Assembly: GCA_963665235.2 (NCBI GenBank)
Contig: CAXXLX010000001.1
Coordinates: 64,001 to 128,000 of the forward strand
DNA from: Candidatus Poribacteria bacterium
Lineage (GTDB): Bacteria > Poribacteria > WGA-4E > WGA-3G
Length of the DNA: 64,000 nt
Reading direction: 5' to 3'
Under the pieces are notes generated by a model. The model ran no database searches, was not told where the DNA came from, and saw only the letters and a program-made list of their open reading frames with translations. Of the stretch, positions 37,538 to 39,923 are shown piece by piece. The first letter of the stretch is position 1. Each line of letters opens with the position of its first letter. The position numbers were made by a program, and so were the translations under genes.

Positions 37538-37948
37538 ATGGAAAACTATAAAATTTATCCAGTTGCGGCGGCGGATGCCTCAACCGCTTTTCAGGTGGAA
37601 TTGGACAGACACGCAATTGCTGCTACAGAAGAGCTCGAAAATAGCGGTGCCCAAGGCGCAGAACGTGAGGAAATTCTACGGAAACACCTCGGTGTCGATT
37701 ATGAAAAAGGCTACCGCGGCACTGCATGGGGTTTACACGGCATCTCTGACGGTTTGACCCCGGCACGGCTGGCAACGCTACTCGAAGCACACGGTGAATC
37801 CTTTGACCCCTGTGCTGAACGTGAAACTTATGACCACAGTTTGATGGTTAACGTTGAAGAGGAGCTGGCATCGCAACTAGACGATGTCCTCGAATCTGTA
37901 TTGGACGCAATTGTTGAGACGTATAAAGCTGCGTTGTTAAATGCATAA
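37538..37948 (+). CDS. Hypothetical acidic protein
   Basis: 136-aa ORF with AAGGA RBS; no recognised motif. Confidence 0.6.
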   Translation: MENYKIYPVAAADASTAFQVELDRHAIAATEELENSGAQGAEREEILRKHLGVDYEKGYRGTAWGLHGISDGLTPARLATLLEAHGESFDPCAERETYDHSLMVNVEEELASQLDDVLESVLDAIVETYKAALLNA

Positions 37949-37949
37949 T

Positions 37950-38775
37950 TAACGCTCCTCCGTCAAATCCCCATGCTTTAGCTTGTGGGATGTAGATGGC
38001 TAAGAGGTCGTGGTCTAAAATAAATTTGACATTCATAACAAAATGTGATATAATACCATTTCTAATTGAAAATGTCTCTTTATTGTAGCATAAACTTCCA
38101 GTTTGTGCGCTTTATTGTAGCATAAACTTCCAGTTTGTGCGCTTTATTGTAGCATAAACTTCCAGTTTGTGCGCTTTATTGTAGCATAAACTTCCAGTTT
38201 GTGCGCTTTATCGTAGCATAAACTTCCAGTTTGTGCTCTTTATTGTAGCATAAACTTCCAGTTTGTGCGCTTTATTGTAGCATAAACTTCCAGTTTGTGC
38301 GCTTTATTGTAGCATAAACTTCCAGTTTGTGCGCTTTATCGTAGCATAAACTTCCAGTTCGTGTCTTCCGTTCTCCGTTTCATTTCTAACAACCGGTAAT
38401 GATAGAATAATTAATAAAAATGGTATAATATTACCAGCATCGTGGATAGCATTCTTACCCGTAGTTTCTCAATTACGGTGCTATCCCTCAATCGTAAGAA
38501 GTTGTGAGATGCTAGTGCGAAATCACTCAAAACATTTTAGGACGGACCGACGATACATGTGGAGTAGAATCCCAGTCAACTGTGTCCGTCTGTCACTTCT
38601 ATTTCTAAAACGGGCGGGCATAGCCAGCAACCATCCTGCTGATAACTCTGATCCACGTTCAGTGTTTCAGACAATCGCCCTAAGTGGAGACGACATAAGA
38701 CGGGTTGTCCCCCAGGGATAAACGCTGTTGTCGAGGAAGCACAAGCCCCTACCTTTAGGTGGTGGGTACTATGAC
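37950..38775 (+). mobile_element. Non-autonomous IS200/605 derivative (left end, promoter, structured RNA, reRNA-like right end), no protein
   Basis: Left hairpin CCCCATGCTTTAGCTTGTGGG; TTGACA-17-TATAAT (38026-38054); tnpB-3'-like GGGCGGGCAT...CGCCCTAAGTGGAGACGACATAAGAC; right end CAAGCCCCTACCTTTAGGTGGTGGGTACTATGAC. Confidence 0.6.
38054..38425 (+). mobile_element. MITE family B, copy 2, with nine tandem 32-bp units
   Basis: TAA|TACCATTT...AAATGGTA|TAA; unit TATTGTAGCATAAACTTCCAGTTTGTGCGCTT; 372 bp = 180 bp + 6 x 32. Confidence 0.9.
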
Positions 38776-38828
38776 CAGAGGTTTGTGACGAGGCACAGCG
38801 GCCTCGCCACTGAATTGATTCGTAGATT

Positions 38829-39923
38829 TTAGTAATCGGCAACCGAGCCATCCGCTAATCTGGCATTTGGCCAGGTAAACTTTCTGCCCTGCTGACTGAC
38901 TTCAATCACCTTCGCTTCGTCTACTTCAACCCCTAGACCGGGCCCTTCAGGGAGGGACACGTAGCCTTCCTCGTCCATCTGCCAATTTTTGTGGGCAACC
39001 CCAGCGGGTAGGACGTTCTCGTAGCCTTCATGGATGAGGAAAAACGGGACTGAAGCGGATAGCTGAAAACTCGCGGTGAGCCCCAGATAGGACATCGTGC
39101 AGTGCGGTGCTATCGGCACGTGATGTGCCTCAGCAAGGGCAGCCACCTTTTTCACCTGGGTAATGCCACCACCGTGCCCGCAATCCGGCTGTAGAATATC
39201 GATGACCTGTGCTTCAAGGATTTCTCGTACCTCCCATATTGTTCGGTCCCGTTCGCCGGTTGCCAATGGAACAGGGACAGATTCTCGGACCTTCCGCATA
39301 ACTTCAACGTTGCCCGGTACCCATGCCTCCTCAAGGAAGAGCAGGTCGTCAGGTTTTAGATACCCTGCAAACTGTTTGAGGATAGGTGGGGGTAGACAGC
39401 TATGTGCATCAAACATAACAGCCCCATCTGGTCCAACTTTCTCGCGGGTATCGTGAATCCGTTGTACCATGTTGGCAATCTCATCGGGGGTACCCGCAAA
39501 GGGTTTAGAGCCGCCCGGACCTGTTTTTATTGCCTTCGGGCTCGGATACTTCCAAATTTTATCCCGGCAAGGCCCGCCGAGCAGGCGATAGACTGGAACA
39601 CCCCACAGCTTTCCGGCTATATCCCACAGTGCCATATCAATAGCCGAGAGTGTGTGAATCATTAAGCCGCCGCCCCGGATGTTTCTGTGGGCACGAAACA
39701 TCCGTTGCCAGTGATGCTCAATGCGTGTCGGGTTCTCGCCTATAATCAGTTCGGATAGGGAACGTGCCAAAGCACAGGTGACAGTTGTCTCCATATTGTT
39801 GATTTCACCCCATCCTGTAACGTCCATGTTGGTTTCAATCTTAACGTAGGCTTTGACCCCCATAGGGAAAGCCTCAAGGTTTGTCACGCGAATCTGTGAA
39901 CCTTTATCTTCATAGTCAGCCAT
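38829..39923 (-). CDS. Mandelate racemase/muconate lactonizing enzyme family (galactonate dehydratase-like)
   Basis: SAIDMALWDIAGK...PVYRLLGG, FDAH, LEE, ATGER, LQPD, APHC, GPGLGVE. Confidence 0.9.
   Translation of the reverse strand: MADYEDKGSQIRVTNLEAFPMGVKAYVKIETNMDVTGWGEINNMETTVTCALARSLSELIIGENPTRIEHHWQRMFRAHRNIRGGGLMIHTLSAIDMALWDIAGKLWGVPVYRLLGGPCRDKIWKYPSPKAIKTGPGGSKPFAGTPDEIANMVQRIHDTREKVGPDGAVMFDAHSCLPPPILKQFAGYLKPDDLLFLEEAWVPGNVEVMRKVRESVPVPLATGERDRTIWEVREILEAQVIDILQPDCGHGGGITQVKKVAALAEAHHVPIAPHCTMSYLGLTASFQLSASVPFFLIHEGYENVLPAGVAHKNWQMDEEGYVSLPEGPGLGVEVDEAKVIEVSQQGRKFTWPNARLADGSVADY

Follow-up and report, generated by a model that had tools for sequence, protein, structure and literature searches.

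How do derivatives of TnpB elements that encode a guide RNA and no protein secure their expression and compete for a nuclease made in trans? Here, we address this question for a locus in a 64,000-nt stretch of a Candidatus Poribacteria genome (contig CAXXLX010000001.1, positions 64,001 to 128,000; the window), for which an initial annotation had proposed a protein-free IS605 derivative combining a promoter, a pseudoknotted RNA, and a TnpB guide cassette. We conclude, with a probability of roughly 75%, that the locus is a non-autonomous, tnpB-less element of the IS200/IS605 family (TnpB-only, IS1341-like) and a guide-RNA cassette of the PATE type. PATEs are protein-less IS200/IS605 elements of Geobacillus stearothermophilus, described as often encoding omegaRNAs that are acted on in trans (Meers et al., bioRxiv 10.1101/2023.03.14.532601). 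Cassettes of this guide-only design are not new; what appears to be novel in the locus is its conserved leader.

Results

An IS200/IS605-type element without a protein gene

Both ends of the element carry subterminal imperfect hairpins and lack inverted terminal repeats, as in the IS200/IS605 family (Table 1). The hairpin at the right end has the same imperfect shape as that at the left end, and both are conserved in seven related elements. All eight elements of the family whose ends the window copy shares (family A) have TTAAC on the left and TATGAC at the right end. Contigs from a related population (one DNA run and three RNA-library runs) join position 37952 to 38776, skipping 823 bases; the join contains one ambiguous base and one C fewer than simple expectation, and in one run four different letters. 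What is absent from this empty site is exactly the outer element, i.e., the element together with a second, inserted element described below. The TTAAC sequence and the empty-site contigs together document insertion 3' of a short target without target duplication, and the flank that would serve as guide (38776..38795) matches the right side of the empty site.

Inside the element, there are only short open reading frames (ORFs), none of which has a Pfam match, in agreement with the annotated lack of a credible ORF; a 70-aa frame is an in-frame remnant of tnpB that is closed in sister copies, as compared by eye. ARAGORN found no tRNA or tmRNA genes in 37900-38900. The left hairpin, the TATGAC right end, and the GACGGAC/GTCCGTC hairpin of the initial annotation are all in place, as is its tnpB-tail-like segment. 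The last 99 nt of the window copy share 97-99% identity with the 3' ends of the full-length tnpB elements at C1:1303437 and C2:528790 (99% over the 99 nt in the closer comparison) and carry the last 14 tnpB codons and the stop codon, that is, the region from the tnpB 3' end through the right end that constitutes an omegaRNA scaffold. The right end of the proposed protein-free derivative is, accordingly, the omegaRNA-coding tail of a TnpB element.

Relatives and trans-encoded proteins in the same genome

A blast search with 37950-38800 against its own genome returned 69 matches, all confined to query positions 91-488, i.e., the insertion. This whole-interval search saw only the inserted element; separate searches with the parts of the outer element identified its true relatives, which comprise three sister cassettes free of the insertion, two full-length tnpB elements (Table 1), one internally deleted copy, and one variant. 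Between the window copy and its sisters, the letters of the stem of the long hairpin at 38541-90 differ with the pairing kept and the loop conserved (by eye). The full-length copies encode a 383-aa TnpB (gene at C1:1303490-1304641 in the C1 copy) with OrfB_IS605 and Cas12f1-like TNB domains (Pfam), in which the RuvC and zinc-ribbon residues are conserved; aligned with five other TnpBs of the genome, its acidic residues and its four zinc-ribbon cysteines are invariant. Genome-wide, there are 44 matches to the TnpB zinc ribbon and 13 to Y1_Tnp, 12 of which exceed the curated cut-off. The suggestion that TnpB is encoded in trans is, therefore, borne out by intact genes for this TnpB and for TnpA elsewhere in the genome. 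A Y1 transposase is present in trans, and its recognition of the ends described here is putative.

The family-A tnpB elements have a 170-nt leader between promoter and tnpB that, by eye, holds a remnant of the TnpA C terminus; the ancestor of these TnpB-only elements was, accordingly, an element with both tnpA and tnpB. In one of them (L041, C1:1303380-1305020), the loop of the left-end hairpin has an extra hairpin of ~45 nt, which is missing from its sister at C2:528790-530267.

A pseudoknotted leader fold supported by covariation

The RNA at the center of the cassette is predicted to form a three-way junction that is closed by P1. P2 and P3 build one arm, and a 7-nt bulge on its 5' side is the pairing partner of the loop that caps the short P4 hairpin. 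These stems and the 7-bp loop pairing had been placed correctly in the initial annotation and are supported by two types of evidence. The minimum free energy (MFE) structure of 38436-38530 contains P1, P2, P3, a fourth stem, and a small 3' hairpin (−26.3 kcal/mol, z −2.71), and 3/200 shuffled sequences fold as well. It is mainly covariation over 36 distinct copies that excludes a chance origin. In an alignment of 38 sequences with 36 distinct rows, 95.1% of the paired cells can pair, compared to 71.6% for shuffled controls and 32-43% for controls with slid partners, and 33/36 pairs have changed on both sides. The covariation score is 0.636 versus 0.211, with 0/500 shuffles as high. Compensatory pairs include 6/7 in the pseudoknot and 4/4 in P4; because both were absent from the model used to build the alignment, these counts are unbiased by it. 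The frequent G-U pairs assign the fold to its strand. P2 is nearly invariant in sequence (GGAYAG/CTRTCC) and the junction nucleotides are conserved.

A profile made from seven copies identified 11 copies in the genome, and a covariance model (CM) confirmed these 11 and added one weak twelfth. The window copy is a clear member, scoring 86.6-89.3 bits with the two models used (R1 and R2). Thus, a single copy without covariation, named in the annotation as a refuting outcome, is the opposite of what was found. In 40 relatives searched with the first model, the fold was present in 13/24 genomes of the same family and 0/16 in three other families. The second model, built from 38 matches, detected it in 83/151 Poribacteria genomes including the source genome; by family, the counts were 75/99, 1/10, 6/26, and, for six further families, 0/15, with up to 26 scored matches in a single genome. 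With ~350 matches in this phylum of sponge symbionts, we consider the fold a candidate for a new RNA family of several hundred members.

Rfam 15 gave no match in the window at the gathering score; at E-values up to 10 in 37800-38950, and up to 1 in 12 further cassette loci, only chance-level miRNA and snoRNA rows were obtained. A blastn search with 'distant' settings of 38431-38790 against plasmids and phages returned no match. Searches in the text of freely accessible literature on TnpB leaders, untranslated regions (UTRs) and pseudoknots, on PATEs and other non-autonomous elements, and on Poribacteria and TnpB, the last without any paper returned, yielded no account of such a leader, and the motif appears to be undescribed. 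The annotated candidate for an "undescribed RNA system" is, accordingly, half right: it appears to hold for the leader but not for the guide-only design, for which PATEs are a precedent.

The fold is a 5' leader of Poribacteria tnpB genes

The initial annotation regarded the fold as a separate RNA fused to a guide cassette. Analysis of tnpB genes leads to a different view. A structure descriptor written in Python, which requires P1, P2, a 7-8-nt bulge, P3, and a P4 with a loop complementary to the bulge, in its strict form matched 3/38 tnpB upstream regions of the genome and 3/400 random windows; the strict matches end 12-13 nt before the ATG and have pseudoknots of 6-7 bp. In its relaxed form, the background is 33/600 random windows and 3/37 reverse complements, such that true and chance matches are separable only by position and pseudoknot length. 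The same architecture is present in at least 4/37 of the genome's own tnpB genes. To extend the sample beyond this genome, an alignment of six TnpBs was searched against one genome per species, giving 79 loci, among which those with a match starting within the first five residues and at least 150 nt of upstream sequence were kept, i.e., 16 Poribacteria-type loci (one of which has no label beyond "uncultured bacterium") and 27 loci of other phyla. The descriptor matched 11/16 Poribacteria leaders, with ten matches ending 11-18 nt and the eleventh 34 nt before the ATG. The 4/27 matches in other phyla are weak, all lie 126-141 nt from the ATG, and are at about background level; controls on the 43 loci gave 0/43 for reverse complements and 1/43 for shuffles. 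In a plain MAFFT alignment of 13 tnpB leaders, including two that the descriptor missed, 98.6% of the cells fit the fold and 17/34 pairs have changed on both sides. Therefore, the fold is a 5' leader family of Poribacteria tnpB genes, and the RNA of the cassettes, rather than having a separate origin, represents a subfamily that has diverged within these 5'-UTR leaders.

In the small hairpin and linker of the cassettes, a comparison by eye shows similarity to the start (GTG) and initial codons of the 368-aa TnpB family. The cassettes have, therefore, lost the interior of tnpB and retained the leader, a few initial codons, and the guide-RNA portion. The third refuting outcome named in the annotation, that the region is simply a decayed tnpB, is true to this extent: tnpB was deleted internally and left a vestigial GTG start and its last codons.

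In the tnpB leaders (L099, L100, and L105-L115; alignment columns 95-107), the 3' strand of P1 is duplicated, with the copies 7 nt apart and the second ending 6-9 nt before the tnpB ATG. Each register shows covariation with the 5' strand, at 97.4% and 94.9% pairing, respectively, and with three pairs changed on both sides. It seems, then, that P1 could close in either of two ways, one of which would mask the site where ribosomes land. The second P1 copy of the cassettes instead forms the small hairpin, and its pairing with P1, at 60.5%, is not clearly above the 55.1% of shuffled sequences; the alignment used for this comparison had been fitted to the first register. Sequestration of a Shine-Dalgarno (SD) sequence was also considered as a general role and rejected: the purine-rich 3' strand of the pseudoknot and P4 is SD-like in the cassettes, but lies ~27 nt from the ATG in a 420-aa TnpB family (by eye).

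Cassettes across the phylum share promoter and leader

In almost every copy, both of the source genome and of 47 loci from relatives, the parts follow the same order, i.e., left-end hairpin, promoter, fold, small hairpin, A-rich linker, long hairpin with scaffold, and right-end hairpin. The end words vary among copies (TATGAC, TATCAC, TGTCAG, and TGTCAA), and left-end hairpins and scaffolds vary too. A promoter with at least 9/12 consensus matches lies within 45 nt upstream in 46/57 fold copies. In 43 of these 46, the −10 hexamer ends 1-3 nt 5' of the model start, with P1 starting 5-7 nt past the −10, and the first nucleotide of P1 is therefore at about +1. When 20 TnpBs of the genome were compared with 50 loci by tblastn, three loci had matches, of which two are short C-terminal remnants right after the fold, in the scaffold region, and one is a separate neighboring element; an intact tnpB directly after a cassette-type fold was found in 0/50.

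At least six copies (L051, L065, L066, L069, L074, and L094) have the promoter, no recognizable right end, and ORFs within 100-250 nt. These may be domesticated leaders or cargo-carrying elements. One of these six loci has an ATPase-like gene further on. Two loci of relatives (L057 and L063) are extreme mini-cassettes in which promoter and fold are followed by the right-end hairpin and end word without a scaffold. In a family-B cassette (L039, C1:892300-893300), the fold contains a 34-nt internal duplication, and a scaffold stem holds a tandem array of ~17 copies of a 19-bp unit.

A MITE splits the promoter of the window copy

The annotated consensus promoter is present and is a perfect sigma-70-type promoter with 12/12 matches. 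In the window copy, promoter and RNA are separated by a 372-bp miniature inverted-repeat transposable element (MITE) inserted within the −10 hexamer, which went unmentioned in the annotation, as did its tandem array. The insertion has the features of a MITE, namely terminal inverted repeats (it starts with TACCATTT and finishes with AAATGGTA), a short target duplication (TAA at 38051-53 and 38426-28), many dispersed copies, and no gene. Its ends occur 148 times (left) and 151 times (right) in the genome, i.e., in ~150 copies, one of which, with the same ends, is at C1:1548495-1549010. Copies are flanked by TAA or TTA, and in 13/14 copies compared by eye the 3-bp TWA is equal on both sides. The core, identified by Tandem Repeats Finder (TRF), consists of a 32-bp unit repeated 8.9 times (38078-38363, 97% matches). 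Each unit resembles an intrinsic terminator, the + strand of the MITE has eight terminator-like hairpins compared to 0.6 expected, and this hairpin array varies between copies of the family.

The MITE has T as its first letter and TA as its last two, which recreates TATAAT at either junction. On the left, the strong promoter is retained, but it is now directed into the MITE and probably blocked by the hairpin array. For the TGgTATAAT at the right junction, a promoter scan found no −35, and its activity is presumed. The window copy is, then, probably weakened and perhaps not silent, with the rebuilt extended −10 alone left to it. The MITE is an unrelated passenger and not part of the TnpB cassette; the window copy would be a case of a second mobile element disarming the first by insertion into its −10 box.

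Table 1. Features of the cassette locus and its closest relatives (window coordinates unless a C1 or C2 prefix is given)
Feature	Position	Strand	Evidence or remark
Flanking convergent genes	37538-37948; 38829-39923	+; −	Setting of the locus
TTAAC target/transposon-adjacent motif (TAM) adjoining the left end	37949..37953	+	TTAAC directly 5' of the left end in 8/8 family-A elements
Whole tnpB-less IS200/IS605-type element including the inserted MITE	37954..38775	+	Ends common to relatives; empty site
Left-end subterminal imperfect hairpin	37969..37989	+	Sequence reading; kept in sister elements
Left-end promoter TTGACA-17-TATAAT with TG before the −10	38026..38054	+	12/12 consensus matches
−35 TTGACA; 17-nt spacer; −10 TATAAT	38026-31; 38049-54	+	
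Inserted MITE separating the promoter from the RNA	38054..38425	+	TRF, blast, end counts
Rebuilt extended −10 TGgTATAAT at the right MITE junction	38421..38429	+	Sequence reading; 6 nt 5' of P1
Leader fold, P1-P4 with 7-bp bulge-loop pseudoknot	38436..38513	+	MFE, CM R1/R2 matches, covariation
P1	38436-41/38508-13		
P2	38444-51/38479-86		
P3	38459-65/38472-78		
P4	38489-92/38501-04		
Loop pairing (pseudoknot), 7 bp	38452-58/38494-500		
Small hairpin holding the vestigial tnpB GTG start (38515)	38514..38527	+	4/4 pairs covary
Long hairpin with conserved loop, 5' part of the guide-RNA scaffold	38541..38590 (38541-47/38584-90)	+	
OmegaRNA-like scaffold with the last 14 tnpB codons (stop 38719-21) and right-end hairpin (38746-66)	38610..38775	+	
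Right end word TATGAC	38770-75	+	
Flank that would be the guide	38776..38795	+	Directly 3' of the right end; putative use
MITE-free sister cassettes, ~400 bp	C1:494613-495012; C1:1263165-1263558; C1:851207-851606		
Full-length tnpB elements, ~1.5 kb	C1:1303437-1304961; C2:528790-530267		

Discussion

Here, we identify a PATE-type cassette in a Poribacteria genome and, in it, a conserved pseudoknotted leader that it shares with intact tnpB genes of the phylum. Like PATEs, the cassette has IS605-type ends, no protein gene, and a right-end omegaRNA that needs TnpB and TnpA from elsewhere; unlike PATEs as described, the Poribacteria cassettes add their own strong promoter and a conserved ~80-nt pseudoknotted leader before the scaffold. 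The closest analogues in layout are IStrons, which are described as IS605/IS607 elements with a left-end group I intron, a right-end omegaRNA, and tnpB-less derivatives (bioRxiv 10.1101/2023.11.20.567912), and which likewise unite a left-end structured RNA with a right-end guide RNA in one element. However, at ~80 nt the fold is far smaller than a group I intron and has no Rfam group I match; its promoter is directly upstream, and nothing points to splicing. Structured RNAs tied to accessory genes of the IS605 family are also represented by the IS605-orfB-I, IS605-orfB-II, and HEARO motifs of Rfam, which correspond to guide RNAs, not to 5' leaders. Rfam 15 includes IS605-orfB-I (RF03065) and HEARO (RF02033) (PMC11701678). 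Neither the window nor the 12 further cassette loci match these or any other Rfam 15 families. In position, the leader is comparable to the 5'-terminal structures that stabilize an RNA and to the leaders that mask the ribosome-binding site of insertion-sequence transposase mRNAs, such as the IS200 leader stem-loop and the ompA 5' hairpin. Like these, it begins near +1, lies just 5' of a start codon, and is expected to limit translation and 5'-dependent decay; unlike these, it is far more elaborate, combining a three-way junction, a 7-bp pseudoknot, and two P1 registers, and it is kept in gene-less elements.

We suggest the following model, in which TnpB loading in trans, guide use, and the role of the fold are proposals drawn from sequence. 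An internal deletion of tnpB would have given rise to the cassette, with the left end and its promoter, leader, vestigial start, scaffold, and right end retained. The left-end promoter would make an RNA with its first nucleotides locked in P1, and this RNA would extend through the scaffold past the right end, thereby acquiring 16-20 nt of flank as its guide. A full-length sister could supply the TnpB that, with the cassette RNA, would cut the empty TTAAC site, and homologous repair of the cut site would restore the element, as in the homing model of guide versus empty site (Meers et al., bioRxiv 10.1101/2023.03.14.532601). TnpA encoded elsewhere in the genome would mobilize the cassette. As for the leader itself, we tentatively propose that it limits TnpB translation and protects the 5' end in the parental elements, and that in cassettes it acts as a 5'-terminal stabilizer or a folding insulator for the precursor of the guide RNA.

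Several observations weigh against this model or complicate it. The MITE may have silenced the window copy. The first stem of its scaffold has a 53-nt extension that is absent from the full-length family-A parents, and compatibility of the cassette with the 383-aa TnpB of these parents is only presumed. Moreover, the parents at C1:1303437 and C2:528790 are without the fold and have the tnpA remnant as their leader. Judged by its sequence, the window cassette is, therefore, not a simple deletion of those copies but a mosaic in which a 5' module with the fold is joined to family-A ends. Contigs from RNA libraries cover 38472-38806 with a word depth of 121-768 compared to 7.4 for a neighboring gene (one run), but may stem from paralogues or DNA and thus neither rank expression nor show a transcript; they are deep over the 3' half of the fold, the scaffold, and the right end, and the DNA run is deep over the right end and the MITE only. 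Finally, a plain hairpin would suffice to protect a 5' end; a role more specific than 5' protection is suggested by the invariant P2, by the pseudoknot of 7 bp, and by the covariation of both P1 registers in tnpB leaders.

The last point raises the question of whether the fold senses something. As a riboswitch-like or protein-responsive switch, bound for instance by TnpB, it would choose between the two P1 closings and in that way gate TnpB translation in full-length elements and the output or fate of the guide RNA in cassettes. The two tandem P1 3' segments in 13 tnpB leaders, both covarying and the second 6-9 nt before the ATG, are what such a switch would use, and the near-invariant P2, the conserved junction nucleotides, and the compact pseudoknotted shape, which resembles that of many aptamers, are compatible with it. 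However, the fold matches no riboswitch or other family in Rfam, neither a terminator nor clear SD sequestration is evident 3' of it, the second register in cassettes is barely over the control, and the gene context, with tnpB as the sole downstream gene, suggests no ligand. We also considered mimicry of a TnpB binding site. The family-A omega tail has an 11-nt word in common with J4/1 of one tnpB leader, but the word is absent from the tail of that leader's own element; this candidate was rejected and lends the switch no support. Altogether, we regard a sensing switch as rather unlikely. In its broadest form, the idea describes the leader as a new class of riboregulator, a pseudoknotted sensor with two P1 registers that switch TnpB translation and that sets guide-RNA stability, processing, or TnpB loading in cassettes, which we hold to be doubtful.

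With ~80 nt, a pseudoknotted three-way junction, and conserved junction nucleotides, the fold is also within the range of small self-cleaving ribozymes, which at this position could release a guide RNA or a tnpB mRNA with a defined 5' end, and its location at the 5' end of a mobile-element RNA has a parallel in the HDV-like (hepatitis delta virus-like) ribozyme reported for the 5' end of L1Tc retrotransposon mRNA (PMC3185411). This explanation is very unlikely. The Rfam searches of the window (E up to 10) and the 12 further loci (E up to 1) gave no ribozyme match, and the fold begins at the transcription start, leaving nothing upstream to remove. Its helix order is also, we presume, unlike the HDV-like, twister, pistol, hatchet, and hammerhead topologies.

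The fold might, alternatively, have lost its function in cassettes and be a leftover of a tnpB translational-control leader, copied along with elements that spread recently. The vestigial start codon marks the cassette as a clear deletion derivative, and full-length tnpB genes bear the same architecture just 5' of their ATG. Yet, the fold is kept in 57/57 examined cassette copies though their ends and scaffolds span at least four end families, and in 36 distinct cassette sequences 33/36 pairs are compensatory where neutral decay would break pairs; some of this pair variation could predate independent deletions and have arisen in full-length ancestors. On balance, we consider a functionless leftover clearly unlikely. 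Least credible of all, and close to negligible, is a role as single-stranded DNA, in which the fold would be an accessory excision or integration site on the top strand handled by TnpA. It does lie on the same strand as the left- and right-end hairpins, ~60 nt inside the left end in MITE-free copies. However, its first nucleotide coincides with the predicted transcription start, in the parents it is part of the 5' UTR immediately ahead of the ATG, and its frequent G-U and U-G pairs would be weak in DNA and correspond to A-C mismatches on the other strand.

The cassettes across the phylum share a promoter and a covarying leader despite their differing ends and scaffolds, and the same fold precedes intact tnpB genes. 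If the leader were indeed a riboregulator, it would give elements without genes a means of competing for a nuclease encoded elsewhere. The leader thus offers a concrete RNA element for studying the control of TnpB expression and the natural stabilization or insulation of guide RNAs.

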